Shown here one piece after another: positions 8,630-20,000 of a DNA stretch of 20,000 nucleotides. The stretch is from IMG/VR virus record IMGVR_UViG_3300029258_004309; one strand, given 5' to 3'. The position numbers and the translations under genes are program-made. Every line of letters starts with the position of its first letter. Within the stretch, counting starts at the first letter, position 1. This DNA comes from an uncultured virus (IMG/VR IMGVR_UViG_3300029258_004309). Lineage: Duplodnaviria > Heunggongvirae > Uroviricota > Caudoviricetes. The notes beneath the pieces are model-generated. The model did not search any database. It was not told the origin of the DNA and was given only the letters and a program-made list of their open reading frames with translations.

Positions 8630-8936
8630 ATGGACGTCAAACAGAAGATAGCAGACCTGCGTGCCTGCGGCGCCTCGAGGAGAACGCCGCTGAGGACTAC
8701 ATCCGCTACCACGGCAGAGAGACGGGCGTTGCGGAGGCGTAGCCGAGGGAGATGAGGACATATGGATGGCCCTGCACCTCTTGCAAGAGCTGCACTACAA
8801 AGACTCTCTCAAGTCGCTCCCAGTTACGACACGTGTCAGGCCTTCAGGTCGTATGCGGGGCGTAGTTCAAAACAAGCCCGACGCTTTTCGGCTGATCTCC
8901 GGAGGGCTGACGCGCGGGTACCCGTATAGAGAGTGA
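8630..8936 (+). pseudogene. Possible frameshifted gene remnant
   Basis: Strong GGAGGT SD plus ATG, but protein-like sequence is split across three frames. Confidence 0.3.
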
Positions 8937-10030: not shown

Positions 10031-10765
10031 ATGTCCCAGTCCGGTTGGTGTGACCGGATCTGGCAGCTGGTGGTCGGGTGCTCTTACGTGTCTGAGGGGT
10101 GCAAGCACTGCTACAGCGCCCGCAAGATACACAACGTCTACAGAGACCAGGAATGGGCAAAGGAGCTGACGTGCCTGAACCGAGATGGCGTCCCAGGCTG
10201 GACCGGTAAGGTAGTGCAGCGCCCCGAGCAACTGTTCAAGCTGGATGCTTGGAGTTGCCCCAGCTACGTGCTGGTCGGGGACAGGGGTGATCTTCTTCAT
10301 CCAAAAGTCCCTGACGAGTTCATAGAACGAGCGCTGATCGCCATTGAAAACAATCCCAAGAACATCTACTTGCTGTTGACCAAGAGGTCCAAGCGCATGG
10401 CTTCTTTCTTCGGAAGGAGGAAACTGCCCGACAACTTGTGGCTTGGAGTCAGCGTAGAGAAGGCGAAGTACTTGCATCGAGCCGACGACCTGCACAGGAC
10501 CGGAGCCAAGAAGAAGTTCCTGTCCCTCCAACCGCTGCTCGGTCCTGTGCCCGTGCCTGACGTCGACTGGGTCATCGTGGGTGGGCAGCAAGGCGGGCAG
10601 CAAACAGCTACCAAGCTCGAGTGGGTCGAGCAGGTGGTCGAGCAGGTCAAGGCCAAGGGCATCCCCCTGTACGTGAACTACTTGCCTGGCTACAAGAAGC
10701 TGGGGTTCACCACCCGGGACTGGCCCGAGCACCTTCAGGTGTGGGAGAGGCCGGGATCTGGGTAG
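10031..10765 (+). CDS. DUF5131 (phage Gp37/Gp68, radical-SAM-like) protein, divergent
   Basis: WCD..W....GCSYVSEGCKHCY, WTGKV, LLTKR..RM, NLWLGVSVE, FLSLQPLLG, DWVIVGG. Confidence 0.88.
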   Translation: MSQSGWCDRIWQLVVGCSYVSEGCKHCYSARKIHNVYRDQEWAKELTCLNRDGVPGWTGKVVQRPEQLFKLDAWSCPSYVLVGDRGDLLHPKVPDEFIERALIAIENNPKNIYLLLTKRSKRMASFFGRRKLPDNLWLGVSVEKAKYLHRADDLHRTGAKKKFLSLQPLLGPVPVPDVDWVIVGGQQGGQQTATKLEWVEQVVEQVKAKGIPLYVNYLPGYKKLGFTTRDWPEHLQVWERPGSG

Positions 10766-13813: not shown

Positions 13814-16345
13814 ATGCCCGGACTGTTTCTCGACCACAAGAAGGTACGCTTCGAGTTCGAAAAGCTCGGCTCGGAGACGATGCTTCCTGAAGACCCGAAC
13901 GTTTGGCCCAACGAGATCCTGCAAGAGCTGTACAAGCAGGTGAGCTACATCGCCGACTTCACGCCGAAGGTCGTTCCGGCCATCATCGACGGCGAGAAGG
14001 GCTACGGCTTCGGCCACATCGAGGTCACCAGCAAGACGGGTGCGCAGAACCCGACGCCGGCGCAAGAGGAGGCAGCGGGTATCCGCCACGTGCGCATCCC
14101 GTTCCTCATCAAGGATCGGAAGCTGATGCCCCTCGACCTCCTGCTCACCGACAGCTCCAAGCTGATGCCCTTGACCGAGACTCGGATGCGGCAAGCGCTG
14201 TTCCGCCCTCAGTCGTTCGACGTCACGAGCAAGACCCCTGGCGACGCCTCCTTGATCGGGCAGCTGTACCCGCCGTATCGCCAGAACTACGGCTTCGGCG
14301 GAGGCGGTGGTGTCGTGAACATCGGCATGGGCAAGATGGGCGAGGCCGACAAGAGCGTCGGGGACACTGCTCGCCACATGCTCCTTCACGGCATCTACCG
14401 GGGCGACGTCGGTCAGGCGCGCAAGGGGCGCGCGGCTCTCGTCAAGCAGAAGGGTACGGCAGCCGACATCGCCGCGCACGACCGGTACATCGCCAAGATG
14501 GGCGAGGCCGACACCTTCATGGGCTGGCTCGCTGAAGAGTACCAGTCCAAGGAAGCCAGCGACGTCGAGGAACTCGCGCGCACCCTCAAGGAGCGGATCA
14601 AGAAGACTCGCAAGGACCCCGCAGCCACGCTCGACGAGATGGCCACGCTGTCGGGACTCAAGAGCGCCAGCGCGCAGGACCCCAGGCTGCCTGGAGAAGA
14701 CCGCCGGCTCACGGGTCCGAGCCCCGAGTACATGGGCCTCAAGAGCCCGACCAACAAGATCGAGAAGAAGGCCAGCAAGGCCGACAAGGCGATCTTGTGG
14801 GCCATGGAGAAGACGAAGGGCACACCGGAGAGTGCCCGAGCTTTCGAAAAAGCGCGTCCCAACATCGAGCGAGCCATCTGGGGTGCGGGTATTGGTCTTG
14901 GCACTGGTGCCGGTATGGGCATTGGCTACCACGAGGGCAGCAAGGGCCGGCCGGGCCGCGAGGCAGCGTCTGGCAAGTACCGAACCAAGAAGTCCTCCAT
15001 CCTGCCGTCCATCCTTCGTACCATCAACGAGACCGACTTCCAGAGGCTCGCTACGCTCATCGACGAGCCTGAGGTGAAACTTGCCTTCTTGCAGAACGAG
15101 GACGCTTCCAAGGCTCTGGCTCCGCTTGGAAGCTACCGACCCGTGCCCGCCGAGAAGCGTGCTGAGGCTTTCGTGCGAGCCATCCCAAGTGATGTCGCCC
15201 AGATCCGACGGCTTGGGGACGGTACGTACGAAGTCAAGGTGGCATCCCATCGGTTCTGGGCTCCCCGCACTTCCAGGGTGGACCGCGGGCAACTGGTGGA
15301 TCTCGTGGGGACCAAGTTGGCCATGGACGTGGATACCAATGAGTCGGTGACCATGGCCGACGGCGCCCAGGTCGACATGCCGAGCCCCGAGCAGGACAAG
15401 CTCGCCCCCATCGTGGACTTCGGGCTGTACCGGTACGCCATGCAGGCCGACATCGCTGGTGTGCGTGCCGGCGAAGGCATGGCCATCCCCGAGGGCGACC
15501 CTCACGGGCACGGTGCGTTCTTCCGGGTGCTGCCCAACGGCAAGGCCGAGGCGACGGTGCCGATGACCATCAAGGGGCAAGTCGAGGGCGGCTACATGGT
15601 CGAGGCCTTCGACGGAGCTCCCGTCACCGTGATGCCGCAGGCAGGCATTGAGGGCTTCGCTCTTGCGGGCGACACGCTGCTCGTACCCCAGGACGTCAGG
15701 TGGCTCGACCTCGACCAGGCCCAAGAGGTCCAGCTCGTCGAGCAGCCCGGTGAGCCCGGTCAGAAGGAAGCGATGGCCCGCGCCATCAGCGTCGACATCC
15801 GCTCTTCCGGCCCCAACACCTTCAGCATCGACGGGCCGCCCGTGAGCAAGCTGGCGTATGCGCAGAAGCAGATGCTCAGCTTCGACGACGCCTCCTTCCT
15901 GCTGGCGGGCTTGGGCGTGCAGCCCCCGTTCGCCATGCACAAGCTCAGCGAGGCCGTGTTCGCGGGCAAGCCCGTGACCGTACCCACGTGCCGCGTCATC
16001 AAGACCGCCGGCGAGCGGATGCACGACGGTCTTCTCAGGGCCCGGGACAAGATCGCATCGAGGCCGGTGCCCAAGGTCGGCTTCCTCGTCAAAGAGGCGG
16101 CGATGATCCCGGATACCACCAGCGTCGACGTCGTCCTGTCCCTCGGCTTCCTCAACGAGGAGAACATCAACGAGTTCCTGAAGTCGCTGCCCGTGCTCGA
16201 GGACGCGCAGCTGCGGATGAGCGAGCTGCTGTACGCGAGCCGCGTGGGCCTGCAGGACGTCCCCGACCAGGCCCTCGAGCGCGCCATTCGGGCCGTCGAG
16301 AAGGTCATCGAAGGTCTCAAGGTCCTGGCGTTTACAGAGAACTGA
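13814..16345 (+). CDS. 843-aa protein, probably virion/morphogenesis-related, rich in K-x-A/S/G motifs
   Basis: AAGGAG SD; strong codon bias; no recognisable catalytic motif, so the function is inferred. Confidence 0.85.
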   Translation: MPGLFLDHKKVRFEFEKLGSETMLPEDPNVWPNEILQELYKQVSYIADFTPKVVPAIIDGEKGYGFGHIEVTSKTGAQNPTPAQEEAAGIRHVRIPFLIKDRKLMPLDLLLTDSSKLMPLTETRMRQALFRPQSFDVTSKTPGDASLIGQLYPPYRQNYGFGGGGGVVNIGMGKMGEADKSVGDTARHMLLHGIYRGDVGQARKGRAALVKQKGTAADIAAHDRYIAKMGEADTFMGWLAEEYQSKEASDVEELARTLKERIKKTRKDPAATLDEMATLSGLKSASAQDPRLPGEDRRLTGPSPEYMGLKSPTNKIEKKASKADKAILWAMEKTKGTPESARAFEKARPNIERAIWGAGIGLGTGAGMGIGYHEGSKGRPGREAASGKYRTKKSSILPSILRTINETDFQRLATLIDEPEVKLAFLQNEDASKALAPLGSYRPVPAEKRAEAFVRAIPSDVAQIRRLGDGTYEVKVASHRFWAPRTSRVDRGQLVDLVGTKLAMDVDTNESVTMADGAQVDMPSPEQDKLAPIVDFGLYRYAMQADIAGVRAGEGMAIPEGDPHGHGAFFRVLPNGKAEATVPMTIKGQVEGGYMVEAFDGAPVTVMPQAGIEGFALAGDTLLVPQDVRWLDLDQAQEVQLVEQPGEPGQKEAMARAISVDIRSSGPNTFSIDGPPVSKLAYAQKQMLSFDDASFLLAGLGVQPPFAMHKLSEAVFAGKPVTVPTCRVIKTAGERMHDGLLRARDKIASRPVPKVGFLVKEAAMIPDTTSVDVVLSLGFLNEENINEFLKSLPVLEDAQLRMSELLYASRVGLQDVPDQALERAIRAVEKVIEGLKVLAFTEN
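14332..14513 (+). repeat. 20-bp perfect direct repeat CAAGATGGGCGAGGCCGACA (14332-14351 and 14494-14513)
   Basis: Read directly; in frame, 162 bp apart, encodes KMGEAD twice. Confidence 0.9.
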
Positions 16346-16416: not shown

Positions 16417-17295
16417 ATGGAGCGGTGGAGTGTATCGGCAAACTACGCAAAGTTCCTACTTTGCCAGGACTTGAGGGCCGATGCGCGCCGCACCCAGACG
16501 CGGATCTTCCGACTTGGCATGTTCCCGCCGTCGACAGACACGATAGAGTTCCTACGAGAAGAGCTCCGCTCCGTCCGGTTCCTGAAGCAAGAGGGCATCT
16601 ACGGCCTCTTCCACCCCGACAAGTACGACCGTCAAGCCTTGGCCCTGCTGCACAAGTCGGTGGTCAAGGAAGCCGCCGAAGCATGGCTTCTCACTGGCGC
16701 CCCGTACGCCGGCGCCGCCGAGTTCCTCAAGAACACCTTCGGGGAGGCGTTCGACCCAATCGCCATTGAGCGCTACGTCTGGTACTGCTTCAACCTCCAC
16801 AAGATACAGCCCTCGGAGTGGCCGGGCATCTTCCGGCGCTACCATTCTCAGTGGGGGGAGGGCGACGTGGAGGACGACATCCGCTGGCGGGCTGTGTCGG
16901 GGTCGAACGACAAGGCCACCCGCATCATGCTGCGCACCTACTACGGCAAGAAGGTGGCCAACACCGACTTCGACGAGGCCATCCGAGACGGGGCGACCAC
17001 GATCGCCAACGCCATCGCTGCCAAGTCGCAGGACCCACGCGTCACCATGCAGGATCTCAACATCGGCGCCCAGGGCATGAGGCACATCAAGGAAGCCTAC
17101 GAGATGTCCCGCTCGGTCGACGCCGACTGGTTGGCGAACGTGGAGCGCGCCAAGCTCAAGCAGCATGACGACAAGATCGTGATGGTCCACGAGCTCAGCC
17201 AGGGAAACCACAGCACCGAGCTCGTCAATCAGGAAGAGGAGAGTCGAGTTGTCGTCCCAATCGACGCTGAGTTCATCGATGACGGCGACGAGTGA
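16417..17295 (+). CDS. Hypothetical helical protein with acidic C-terminus
   Basis: 292-aa ORF with GC3 bias; TATGAT 9 nt upstream and no clear SD. Confidence 0.8.
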   Translation: MERWSVSANYAKFLLCQDLRADARRTQTRIFRLGMFPPSTDTIEFLREELRSVRFLKQEGIYGLFHPDKYDRQALALLHKSVVKEAAEAWLLTGAPYAGAAEFLKNTFGEAFDPIAIERYVWYCFNLHKIQPSEWPGIFRRYHSQWGEGDVEDDIRWRAVSGSNDKATRIMLRTYYGKKVANTDFDEAIRDGATTIANAIAAKSQDPRVTMQDLNIGAQGMRHIKEAYEMSRSVDADWLANVERAKLKQHDDKIVMVHELSQGNHSTELVNQEEESRVVVPIDAEFIDDGDE

Positions 17296-17674: not shown

Positions 17675-17789
17675 GTACCGCATCCCGGCCAACTACGTCA
17701 TCCCCACGTGCAAGAAGTGCGGGGCGCAGTGGACTTCGACTGAGCAGCTGCTCGAGCTCGGCGCCTGGTTGGAGAAGAAGAATGGCTGA
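17595..17789 (+). CDS. YgiT-type / MqsA-N-terminal-like zinc finger
   Basis: CPKCGG...TMRYRG...IP....IPTCKKCG.QW pattern; no HTH. Confidence 0.7.
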   Translation: MNVCPKCGGKVVPTRKPGRTMRYRGTEYRIPANYVIPTCKKCGAQWTSTEQLLELGAWLEKKNG

Positions 17790-20000
17790 GCAGAGCATCT
17801 CCCTCGGCTACGCCTCCGCAACGCTGGTTCCGGAAGGTGAAGACGGCGTCCGCATCGAGAAGCTGTGGGTCGACCCTGAACATCGGGGCAAGGGAGATGC
17901 GCGTCGGCTCTTGCGCAAGATCAAGAAGGACTTCGCCGACAAGAAGTTGTGGATGCGGCCCCGCGGCTTCGGGGACATCCCCATGGGCGTGGACGAGCTC
18001 AGGAAGTTCTACGAGAGCGAGGGCTTCAAGACCATGGACAAGCTCGACAACATGCTCTTCGACAAGACGGCTGAAGTCGTCGAGCTCACCACGCCCGGGC
18101 AGCGTCAAGAAGCCGCCAGTCTCGAACGACGTGTCTTCTCTCCGGGCAGCAAGTACCAGAACCCGAGGCCCCCTTCCGCCAAGAGGTTCACCTCGTACGG
18201 CGTCTACGACGACGGAAAACTCGTGGGGGTCACCAGGGTGGACAAAGACCCTCTCAAGGCATGGGCCAAGGACAAGGAAGGGCTGAAGGCGCTGAAGGTC
18301 CTCGGGCCGGAGGTGTGGATAGAGGCTACGGCGGTAGACCCGGAGCATCGTGGTAAGGGCGTGGCCAAGGCTCTTCGAGGGCACGTGCAGAGCCAGTACA
18401 GCAGCGTGCTCACAGGGACTGGTCCGAAGTCCGACCCGGCCATGAAGCACTTGAACGAGTCGCAAGGGTTCAAGCCCGTTCTGCAACGAGGAAAGAACAT
18501 GCAATACCATTGGGCGAAGACCGCCGAGCTTGCCGAGGACGGGGAGCACAAGCTGCAAGGGCGCCGCAACTTTCAAGGGCTGTCGATCGCTATCGAGAAC
18601 CGCAAGGGCTCGGTGCGCAAGGGCACGGGTAAGGACGGCAAGGAATGGCGCACGAAGATGAAGGCGCCGTACGGCTACATCGAGGCGCCGGCCAACGGGC
18701 GGGATGGGGAATCCATTGACGCGTACATCGGTCCCGACAAGAAGGCCCCCGACGCCTTCGTCGTTCACCAGCACAAGGAGAACGGCAAGGGGCACGATGA
18801 GGACAAGGTCATCCTGGGCGTGCGCTCGATCGCCGAGGCCAAGCGCCTGTACCTTCAGCACTACGACAGCCCCAAGTTCCTGGGGCCTGTCTCAAGGGTT
18901 CCCATGGAACGTCTGAAAGAGCTCGTGCAGCAGGACAAGAAGATCTCGAAGCTGTCTTCCGCCGATGAGCACCTTCTGCTTTCCGTGCTCGGGCGGGCGG
19001 GCGTGAAGGTCTCTTCGATGCAGGAACCGGGAGTTCGGAAGAAGGACAAGACCGGCCCGAGAGGTAAGAAGGGCAAGTGCGAGGGCCCGGGGCCGAGGCT
19101 TCGCCAATTCGGCGGCGTGAAGCTGGCTGCTGGCGACGCTGTAGTCAGCGCTGATGACCATCCTGCCGTTGCAGTAGGTAAGGTGCTGAGCAACAGGCTC
19201 GACAAGGTCAACCCGAACCGGCCGCGCTATGCCTCGCTCAAGGACTTCATCTTGCGCCGACCGGATCCTCGCTACGATCCCAGCATCTCTCGAGAGGAAC
19301 AGCTCCGGCGTCACTACTCAGGCAAGCCGCCAGTCAGGATGCGCCGCGTCGGGCAGGGCATTGAGCATGAGATTGCTCCTGGGGTCACTGCCGTCATGCG
19401 CATCAAGACGCCGGGGGACGAAGAGCGTGGACGGCAGTACGCCAAGAAGGTCATGGACGACTACTACAAGGAGTCCGCAGATCCTCGTGAGCGCATTCTG
19501 CTCGGCATCCTCAAACAGGCCGGCATCCCCGAGCTCAAGCGACTTCCGACTGATGTCGACTTGGCGAAAGAGAAGATGCTCAAGGCGATCGAGCGCAGCA
19601 AGGACAGGAGCTGGTCGCATCCGCAGATCTCGATTCCGCACAACAAGATCGACCTCGAGCGGTTCGGCTTCGAGCCCACGCGCATCGCCATCCCCATGCC
19701 TTGGGAGAAGCCGCTCGAGACGAGTTGGCGTGCGGGGCGTCTGCACGCTCACAAGATGGGTGACCGGTACATGGTGCACGCCGACGCAGCGTCTCCGGAC
19801 AGCTTCTACGGCAAGGTCAAGCACCTGATCGAAGACGTACCGCCGGCGGTAGCCAAGCGCATCGGCATGAACAAGACGGCCATCAGTGCCCAGCCCTTGG
19901 GCACTCTCGGCAAGGTGCTCATGCAGGGCATCAAGTCCCCGGGGGCTGCTCGCAACGTCGCTAAAGACGTGAAGATGATGGGCAAGGTCAGGGCGCCGTC
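17782..20000 (+). CDS. Polyvalent multidomain protein (3'-partial, >739 aa): GNAT, GNAT, inorganic-pyrophosphatase-like, unknown, His-rich domain
   Basis: Hand translation from ATG 17782 (GGAG upstream) finds no stop before the window end. Two VDPEHRGKG acetyl-CoA motif A copies with FYESEGF/LNESQGF; IAIENRKGSVRKG, YGYI, DGESID and DEDKVILG. Confidence 0.9.
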   Translation, partial: MAEQSISLGYASATLVPEGEDGVRIEKLWVDPEHRGKGDARRLLRKIKKDFADKKLWMRPRGFGDIPMGVDELRKFYESEGFKTMDKLDNMLFDKTAEVVELTTPGQRQEAASLERRVFSPGSKYQNPRPPSAKRFTSYGVYDDGKLVGVTRVDKDPLKAWAKDKEGLKALKVLGPEVWIEATAVDPEHRGKGVAKALRGHVQSQYSSVLTGTGPKSDPAMKHLNESQGFKPVLQRGKNMQYHWAKTAELAEDGEHKLQGRRNFQGLSIAIENRKGSVRKGTGKDGKEWRTKMKAPYGYIEAPANGRDGESIDAYIGPDKKAPDAFVVHQHKENGKGHDEDKVILGVRSIAEAKRLYLQHYDSPKFLGPVSRVPMERLKELVQQDKKISKLSSADEHLLLSVLGRAGVKVSSMQEPGVRKKDKTGPRGKKGKCEGPGPRLRQFGGVKLAAGDAVVSADDHPAVAVGKVLSNRLDKVNPNRPRYASLKDFILRRPDPRYDPSISREEQLRRHYSGKPPVRMRRVGQGIEHEIAPGVTAVMRIKTPGDEERGRQYAKKVMDDYYKESADPRERILLGILKQAGIPELKRLPTDVDLAKEKMLKAIERSKDRSWSHPQISIPHNKIDLERFGFEPTRIAIPMPWEKPLETSWRAGRLHAHKMGDRYMVHADAASPDSFYGKVKHLIEDVPPAVAKRIGMNKTAISAQPLGTLGKVLMQGIKSPGAARNVAKDVKMMGKVRAP

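Follow-up and report, generated by a model that had tools for sequence, protein, structure and literature searches.

How a phage could turn one polypeptide with several unrelated enzymes into separate proteins is the question raised by a 20,000-nucleotide stretch (hereafter the window) of an uncultured caudoviricete, IMG/VR record IMGVR_UViG_3300029258_004309. At its downstream end lies an open reading frame (ORF; 17782–19998, plus strand, 739 codons inside the window and open through the window end) that encodes two GNAT domains, an InPase domain and further modules, punctuated by the short motif K-x-[AS]. Polyvalent proteins are thought to be the first weapons that a phage injects, and for most of them the route from chain to active proteins is unknown. 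We find that modules of this protein are inserted, lost and exchanged at K-x-[AS] sites, that the motif flanks InPase domains across a wide range of relatives, and that it is enriched in the head-module proteins of the same phage. The signal is the placement of the sites, not their number, and the motif is better written phi-x-K-[TLIVM]-[AS], phi being a hydrophobic residue. The reading that we favour, and hold to be slightly more probable than not, is that a head-maturation protease cuts the junctions, turning a packaged polyvalent protein into separate enzymes.

The complete protein is found in a near-identical 92-kb viral record (G002), which matches the window's part of the ORF at 100%: there the gene (L006:462–3557) encodes 1,031 residues and ends in a TAG stop codon (G002/L006:3555–3557). 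An identical 1,031-residue protein exists in a public protein collection, and a 176,459-bp contig of the same phage (G001:C1) has both of its ends inside the gene. The layout is GNAT, GNAT, InPase, four modules matching no family, and a Pro/Ala-rich tail. Pfam identified two GNAT stretches, each with both PF13508 (Acetyltransf_7; 55.5 bits, cut-off 27) and PF00583 (55.6 bits, cut-off 20.7), and the InPase domain PF18823 at residues 252–382 (126.8 bits, cut-off 26.8, model positions 5–134 of 135), so that membership of both families stands over the curated cut-offs. Module 1 comprises just ~95 residues, a truncated or minimal GNAT. Residues 383–1031 matched no family in Pfam, PHROGs, NCBIfam, PDB sequences or Atlas. 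The phage genome holds no paralog of the protein, and its C-terminal third shows no similarity to the scaffold-like head protein described below. GNAT and InPase are both listed as polyvalent-protein domains by Iyer, Burroughs, Anand, de Souza and Aravind (2017; PMC5512222), who place InPase mainly in (pro)phage proteins likely to be packaged in the virion. With two GNATs and an InPase the chain carries at least two disparate biochemical domains in one polypeptide, as polyvalent proteins do, and its gene is encoded by a phage, on a contig with TerL, an HK97-fold major capsid protein (MCP), tail sheath, baseplate, DNA polymerase and RNA polymerase. In the following list of its features, P-numbers denote homologous proteins and X-numbers public metagenome runs and their contigs.

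17782..20000 (+): polyvalent ORF, first 739 of 1,031 codons; continues past the window
17782..18063 (+): module 1, short GNAT, residues 1–94; Pfam, and a PDB match of residues 8–92 to positions 58–142 of a 148-residue acetyltransferase
18064..18072 (+): junction KTA95–97, F at −2, E after; the exact site at which P0003 and the X5 and X6 contigs carry an additional module
18073..18516 (+): module 2, full-size GNAT, residues 98–245; Pfam; K-x-[AS] precedes this module in 5 of 6 different architectures
18517..18525 (+): junction KTA246–248, W at −2, E after; local alignments of 5 homologs with different upstream modules begin at residue 246
18535..18927 (+): module 3, InPase PF18823, residues 252–382; two internal K-x-[AS] without the extended context
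18604..18612 and 18739..18747 (+): InPase-internal sites KGS275 and KKA320, within the fold region
18940..18957 (+): double junction KIS387–389/KLS390–392, at the end of the InPase C-terminal segment
18958..19128 (+): linker peptide 393–408, KVS409–411, basic 35-residue peptide and KLA447–449; the whole unit is missing from P0004
19129..19476 (+): module 4, residues 450–562, no family, ends in KES563–565; an unrelated module stands here in P0003 and in the X5 and X6 contigs
19477..19521 (+): second linker peptide, 566–577, ends in KQA578–580; KQA is invariant in P0002, P0003 and P0004
19522..19881 (+): module 5, His-rich, 581–697, ends in KTA698–700; no family, no Atlas match
19882..20000 (+, start only): C-terminal third, residues 701–1031, a Pro/Ala-rich spacer and a conserved C-terminal domain with zero K-x-[AS]

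The original prediction, made from the letters of the window, had proposed an open frame from 17782 with two GNATs and a pyrophosphatase-like domain, which the extension of the ORF in G002 and the Pfam matches confirm. Its motif coordinates are exact (KTA 18064, KTA 18517, KLS 18949, KVS 19006, KLA 19120, KES 19468, KQA 19513 and KTA 19873); its list passed over three sites, KGS 18604 and KKA 18739, both in InPase, and KIS 18940.

A search of 5.8 billion proteins returned 17 relatives that have some modules in common and differ in others, their further modules including SNF2 helicase, SET, C39 peptidase, DNA ligase and M23 domains. When P0002, P0003 and P0004 are aligned, the motif bounds every indel or swap. 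P0003, whose best local alignment covers 45% of the query at 96% identity, carries a whole additional module right after KTA97, the end of the insert being KKS, and has residues 450–565 replaced between KL[AS] and KE[SA]. P0004 lacks residues 393–449 exactly between K[LI][SA] and KLA, and another module substitutes for GNAT2 between KEA and KSA. The junction sites are kept while the middle residue drifts (KTA/KSA, KLS/KIA, KES/KEA/KRS and KTA/KEA among these three proteins). Elsewhere, P0055 terminates at the end of module 2, and module 5 recurs in P0106, there ending in VAKTA ahead of a second, divergent InPase.

Breakpoints were also defined independently of the motif, as clusters of the ends of BLASTP high-scoring segment pairs (HSPs) among the 17 homologs, with the motif counted within 6 residues. 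K-x-[AS] lies that close to 63 of the 146 clusters (random 23.8 ± 4.5, z = 8.6); of the control motifs, R-x-[AS], [AS]-x-K, K-x-[GT] and K-x-[LV] do not depart from chance, and E-x-[AS] shows a slight excess (z = 3.1). Removal of junctions within 25 residues of InPase still leaves the motif at 32 of 90 clusters (10.2 ± 3.0 expected). The 67 junction sites represent 59 two-sided contexts, or 38 groups under the loosest merging. HSP starts accumulate on the Lys and just after the Ala/Ser, and the extended phi-x-K-[TLIVM]-[AS] is found at 22 junction clusters against 3.6 at random (z = 10.8), a small residue after the Lys giving z = −0.1. Codons and flanks differ from site to site among the eleven sites of the query, so the constraint lies on the protein. 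One homolog, P0005, has a truncated InPase fragment (residues ~606–640) that ends in ENRKTA and is followed by an unrelated module; the position of the query's InPase-internal KGS acts there as a junction.

Exchange at the motif is likewise visible in natural populations. Contigs (not reads) from four public metagenome runs, two of which may include the source sample, were aligned on the full ORF. Directly after KTA97, the wetland contig X6 continues with sequence translating to the start of the extra module of P0003, and the 16.6-kb relative X5 has ~350 extra letters. In both, window positions 19124–19480 (355 nucleotides), the module between KLA449 and KES565, are replaced by 256 other letters. 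X1 and X3 have a minor contig (depth 5–7 against 18–21) with ~260 extra letters at the KIS/KLS junction. The four module-level breakpoints fall 0, 0, 0 and 2 residues from a K-x-[AS] site (chance 2.5e-5). The six remaining joint ends, 11–38 residues from any site, are near-equal-length replacements within GNAT2 or InPase and represent ordinary divergence. Compared with G001:C1, the window is 100% identical save for two clean in-frame deletions near ~15432 and ~16569, of 35 residues in an 843/878-residue protein (ORF 13814–16345) and 14 residues in a 292/306-residue protein (ORF 16417–17295). Assemblies break in the polyvalent gene itself (G001:C1 1–722 and 176022–176459; L006 ~1565–1683), and the main contigs of X1 and X3 end near the InPase end with the minor variant alongside, as expected if strains with different module sets coexist.

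The motif is most regular around InPase. Exhaustive searching found 8,864 relatives at E ≤ 0.001; almost all of the best 150 representatives (≤50% mutual identity) are InPase proteins. In counts that exclude P0002 and P0003, 108 of 130 internal InPase cores have K-x-[AS] among the 14 residues before them (random 30.3 ± 4.8), the distance to the core ranging from 0 to about 10 residues, and in 120 of 134 cases the motif follows InPase within 10 residues (random 21.4 ± 4.1). At these flanks the Arg and reversed motifs are at chance level or below. The flank motif spans representatives ≤50% identical and viral contigs of 30–63% G+C. Among PHROGs, the InPase families are labelled minor head, virion structural or DarB-like. 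Two InPase proteins with leader and flank motifs (L021:3689–4657 and L023:3011–4696) have Gly-rich, membrane-like C-terminal tails with GxxxG-type runs, and L031 encodes a 1,695-residue polyvalent protein whose InPase is seemingly interrupted by an intein-like insert. K-x-[AS]-rich neighbours in L021, L024 and L026 received no assignment.

The phage is myovirus-like, of ~176 kb, with tail sheath, baseplate, a fused 2,217-residue RNA polymerase, DNA polymerase, helicase, primase, UvsX-like recombinase, ligase and TerL (159 gene calls on G001:C1, PHROGs run on 150). Its head module comprises, in order, TerL, proteins of 432, 964 and 293 residues, a 513-residue Pro/Ala-rich protein, a 179-residue protein and a 374-residue HK97-fold MCP; the 513-residue protein is called scaffold-like from gene position and composition alone. 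Over the whole proteome K-x-[AS] is not enriched (387 against 353), and the reversed motif is equally high. In the six head-module proteins it occurs 56 times against 30.3 expected (p = 1.9e-5), with reversed and Arg controls flat, the region having been chosen after the per-protein list was seen and forming a natural block from the 432-residue gene beside TerL through the MCP gene. Seven other genome regions, tail and baseplate included, have no excess of K-x-[AS] (p = 0.21–0.69). For phi-x-K-[TLIVM]-[AS] the head module holds 12 against 2.0 expected, and the rest of the proteome 32 against 26.5.

The scaffold-like family is densely loaded with the motif. Among 109 homologs, mostly 30–50% identical, K-x-[AS] exceeds the composition expectation in all 109 (1,639 against 973); K-phi-[AGS] stands at 945 against 324, and the reversed motif and R-x-[AS] at ratios of 0.74 and 0.89. 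The best-fitting description is again phi-x-K-[TLIVM]-[AS] (343 against 44.4), a small residue right after the Lys being depleted (ratio 0.81). The sites are conserved in position and free in the middle residue, and S, E, M or A follows. The MCP carries K24-x-A26 followed by E, N-terminal of the HK97-fold core, in 119 of 119 clade members; its K15-x-[AS] is kept in just 43 of 119. For the phage E217, residues 1–65 of its own MCP are described as not visible. A context matrix trained on the scaffold-like family gives the nine junction sites of the polyvalent protein a mean score of 0.22 against −2.90 for 321 non-head sites (p = 0.0075), with the lowest scores going to the two InPase-internal sites. 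A hydrophobic residue at −2 is present at six junction sites and at neither InPase-internal site. Polyvalent protein, scaffold-like protein and MCP carry the same short motif, as would be expected of cargo processed by a head protease.

The 964-residue head protein (G001:C1:146866–149760, minus strand; L008:8942–11836, plus strand) contains a LAGLIDADG intein (Pfam LAGLIDADG_3 and Hint_2; the NCBIfam intein C-terminal region over its cut-off), has an extein without a family and a K-x-[AS] cluster at residues 663–733, and is a candidate portal or protease. A likeness of its extein to HK97/XkdF proteases finds no support in Pfam, PDB, BLASTP or Atlas searches.

In the favoured reading, the polyvalent chain would enter the procapsid, its junction peptides would be cut by the same head-maturation protease that would break down the scaffold and trim the MCP, and the freed modules would be ejected with the DNA as early host-takeover enzymes. 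With its own site, each module could be inserted, deleted or exchanged without loss of processing, which would explain the cassette-like evolution. A broader form of this reading is credible to us, at somewhat less than an even chance: a very large uncultured clade of ~175–200-kb phages, represented by 1,913 MCP relatives, would use the lineage-specific phi-x-K-x-[A/S] as a universal address-and-cut label. Any cassette flanked by the label would be taken up by the procapsid, released by a head protease of new specificity (possibly of a new family, perhaps the intein-split 964-residue head protein) and injected. The MCP relatives (E ≤ 1e-5; the 120 matches listed are 74–100% identical, on contigs up to ~200 kb) form a large uncultured clade. 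A label of this kind would make the injected proteome readable from sequence, and cassette exchange would be plug-and-play, visible as polymorphism within single metagenomes.

A code common to scaffold, capsid and cargo junctions would offer a testable processing mechanism that needs no peptidase in the chain, define a new substrate specificity for a capsid-maturation protease, and account for the free exchange of effector cassettes that is visible inside individual samples. With it, one could predict from sequence only which proteins a large uncultured clade packages and injects, and it might give a handle for loading foreign proteins into capsids, as has been done with T4 and P1 targeting signals.

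Polyvalent proteins and the processing of cargo by head proteases are already known kinds; the literature searched held no description of the leader peptide found around InPase or of a Lys/Ala-type junction or head-protease motif. As in the polyvalent proteins of PMC5512222, several unrelated enzymatic domains are joined in one phage-encoded polypeptide. That paper predicts processing of polyvalent proteins into separate domains by peptidase domains within the protein (a zincin-like MPTase, or an assemblin-like domain that is always C-terminal), whereas no peptidase family is detectable inside the protein here by Pfam, PHROGs or NCBIfam, and these searches showed neither an MPTase nor a C-terminal assemblin-like domain, which are frequent but not obligatory in polyvalent proteins. 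Its main text names no junction motif and has the word "linker" 0 times; the supplementary alignments may show the flanks of InPase.

The T4 prohead protease gp21 cuts at I/L-x-E, and T4 internal proteins carry an N-terminal capsid-targeting sequence (PMC12991175, PMC9024508). As in T4, where leaders end in the cut site and cargo is ejected with the DNA, one short motif is common to scaffold, capsid protein and packaged cargo, a likeness that is known here at the level of sequence. What sets our phage apart from T4 is a motif built on Lys and Ala/Ser (phi-x-K-x-[AS]) and a presumed cargo that forms a single chain of many modules, with sites inside it, in place of separate small proteins; Pfam S77 has no match in this phage. 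In the giant phages phiKZ and SPN3US, ejection proteins undergo head proteolysis (PMC5694885, PMC10052503, PMC7411985), many head and ejection proteins of a large myovirus being cut by one prohead protease at a short consensus; our phage differs from them in motif, in the lack of detected homology and in its modular, cassette-like cargo. In P1, the first 30 residues of DarB, a polyvalent protein of 250 kDa, direct it to the capsid (PMC9024508); DarB is a packaged anti-host protein with a peptide addressing signal. For the Dar proteins the excerpts of that paper define no cleavage site, report N-terminal sequencing of DarA without a clear signal and find no consensus targeting sequence among Dar N-termini. 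The P1-like Xanthomonas phage Rb1 lacks a K-x-[AS] code, and in phi24B a 2,811-residue polyvalent protein is described as abundant in virions.

The head protease of phiKZ and SPN3US is said to recognise A/S/G-x-E. Herpesvirus assemblin, a capsid-maturation protease that also cuts scaffold, has sites of the form (V/L)-x-A followed by S. Ala at the P1 position followed by Ser gives these sites the same shape as K-x-A followed by S/E in the scaffold-like family, from which they differ in that Lys replaces Val/Leu two residues before the Ala; no assemblin-fold protein was found in our phage. The T4 and P1 parallels, the processing prediction of 2017 and the phi24B virion protein fit a cargo-polyprotein account.

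Several observations weigh against cleavage of the junctions by a head protease. The polyvalent protein has no excess of the motif, with 11 K-x-[AS] sites against 13.9 ± 3.2 in shuffles, the sole unusual count being KTA (three against 0.29 expected, P = 0.0018 in shuffles), and two of the 11 sites, KGS and KKA, lie inside the InPase fold. No motif is near 83 of the 146 break clusters, many HSP ends being merely fuzzy, and K-x-[AS] does not border either in-frame indel of the neighbouring genes. Some 21 kb separate the polyvalent gene from the head module, and the genes around it have no family. MCP residues 1–17 are conserved like the remainder of the protein (0.80 against 0.86). In the 21 proteins with InPase as a stand-alone or first module, a short leader ending in K-phi-A is mostly kept, and 9 of 155 proteins terminate ≤3 residues from the C-flank motif of InPase; the motif could therefore act as a leader or propeptide or as a docking tag, or it could belong to the domain itself.

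No phage-encoded prohead protease of S77, S78 or S78_2 type was found: G002, which carries the head module at 100% identity, has nothing that these three Pfam models recognise at E ≤ 10, and Pfam at the same threshold detected no prohead protease in either extein half of the 964-residue protein or in the 293- and 432-residue proteins. A PDB sequence search and BLASTP against the phage F8 protease returned nothing usable, and in Atlas the nearest named clusters were S78 (12% of members) and S77 (60%), with a score of 0.78 that is at chance level. Nor does the code extend to the cultured phages PHB04 and Rb1, which have InPase cargo beside head genes and show neither K-x-[AS] code nor enrichment in head proteins. 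The flanked InPase subtype is absent from all seven cultured phages examined (F8, PHB04, Rb1, douglas 12A4, RHph_TM3_14A, PBC5 and LE1), the five besides PHB04 and Rb1 having InPase forms without a K-I-S-type C-flank motif; the code is therefore lineage-specific.

Set against the original prediction of a protease-processed cargo polyprotein, these results are mixed. In homologs and natural populations alike, module swaps fall exactly at K-x-[AS], junction motifs are conserved with a drifting middle residue, and the expected enrichment in structural proteins is found in those of the head module and in no other region. The head protease that it called for did not emerge from the Pfam S78, S78_2 and S77 searches. 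As for the findings it had named as fatal, the siting of motifs inside folded domains holds for the two InPase sites, and the frequency of the motif in this protein is indeed not above composition.

Among other explanations, the one that we take most seriously, while judging it unlikely, is that the junction peptides are never cut. They would be short amphipathic helices ending in K-phi-[A/S/G] that dock the modules to the scaffold or capsid interior as a targeting tag, or that insulate the folds, the chain being packaged and ejected whole. Away from InPase and its flanks the enrichment of plain K-x-[AS] is slight (z = 2.1). A longer phi-F-D-E-L-x-K-phi-[AGS]-type peptide recurs there in other phages (E-phi-x-K-phi-[AGS], 56 against 4.3 expected); the looser form [ED]-phi-x-K-phi-[AGS] has 71 copies, of which at least 21 begin within the first 15 residues of a protein, like a leader. 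The retention of both flanks by stand-alone InPase proteins points the same way, as do the N-terminal targeting peptides of P1 DarB and the T4 internal proteins and the N4 vRNAP-type polyvalent proteins, which are packaged unprocessed (PMC5512222). In our phage, by contrast, the strict leader is not enriched (9 against 5.0 ± 2.2; controls 10, 10 and 6), and a leader matrix of FFDELxKIA type from other phages has 5 matches in the proteome against 1.7 expected and none in the polyvalent protein. The dense, directional motif load of the scaffold-like family, present in every one of its homologs, has the look of a degraded scaffold. Moreover the T4 protease removes the targeting peptide itself, so tag and cut site do not exclude each other.

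Cleavage by another enzyme or at another time, by a papain-like C1 peptidase or by a host protease after ejection, seems to us distinctly improbable. Besides the failure to find an assemblin- or HK97-type protease (Pfam S78, S78_2 and S77 on G002 and the extein halves), its attraction is that the genome encodes a papain-family C1 peptidase (G001:C1:127667–128542, plus strand; PF00112, E = 8.8e-13), unusual in a phage, with QGALGSC, GRHAM and RNSWG, which we take to be the papain catalytic motifs. Papain-type enzymes prefer a hydrophobic residue at P2, and with a cut behind the A/S the motif K-[TLIVM]-[AS] would place one there. The C1 gene belongs to a small opposite-strand cluster away from the head genes, with nothing to tie the peptidase to the head, and confinement of the enrichment to head-module proteins points to an enzyme acting in the procapsid. 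Still a little less probable, and disfavoured, is the absence of any common function: K-x-[AS] would belong to the conserved termini of a few mobile domains, InPase above all, and be inherited with them, the rest being selective reading. InPase has the motif on both flanks almost universally, the polyvalent protein lacks a motif excess, three sites were left out of the original prediction, and in the AQ-x-EA-GNYKKG subtype of InPase in cultured phages "KEA" is part of a domain motif whose Lys varies. The enrichment nevertheless survives removal of the InPase-adjacent junctions and extends over at least 38 unrelated junction contexts, the N-flank offset to the InPase core varies, and enrichment in the head module and scaffold-like family would be left unexplained. 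A DNA-level recombination signal promoting cassette exchange would fit the exchange of cassettes exactly at the sites; we give it almost no credence and reject it, since the codons of the eleven sites differ, their flanks are unrelated and the middle residue is free, and the motif is conserved across divergent representatives and contigs of widely differing G+C.

Of the cultured phages, Bordetella phage PHB04 (NC_047861.1, 21098–37431) has a run of cargo-type genes between portal and head-maturation protease: two phosphatases, a stand-alone InPase, a 2,097-residue "methyltransferase", an Ulx-like anti-restriction protein and a 1,518-residue helicase. Here cargo genes are plainly built into a head module, but no K-x-[AS] code accompanies them.

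Upstream of the polyvalent gene lies a neighbour that may be a further cargo or head protein:

13814..16345 (+): 843-residue protein, no family, 17 K-x-[AS] (8.8 expected for the 878-residue G001 version), N-terminal EFEKLG

Given that the strict leader is not enriched in this phage and its controls are equally high, the EFEKLG is not counted as evidence. A 29-nucleotide exact inverted repeat joins window positions 17796–17824 (plus strand; codons 5–14 of the polyvalent ORF) with 8726–8754, in an apparently non-coding gap 9 kb upstream; a rough estimate puts its chance at ~1e-9 per 20-kb window, and the pair is also present in G001 and G002. An RNA from the gap, if transcribed on the plus strand, would pair with the 5′ end of the polyvalent mRNA. 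The 29-mer is absent from all other viral contigs searched, and Rfam has no match in the gap. TTA is nearly absent from G001:C1: it accounts for 5 of 46,948 codons, spread over 4 genes, and the polyvalent ORF has none. The only other gene of the window with a Pfam family, at 10031–10765 (plus strand), encodes a DUF5131 protein (PF07505, E = 1.7e-50; phrog_2045).

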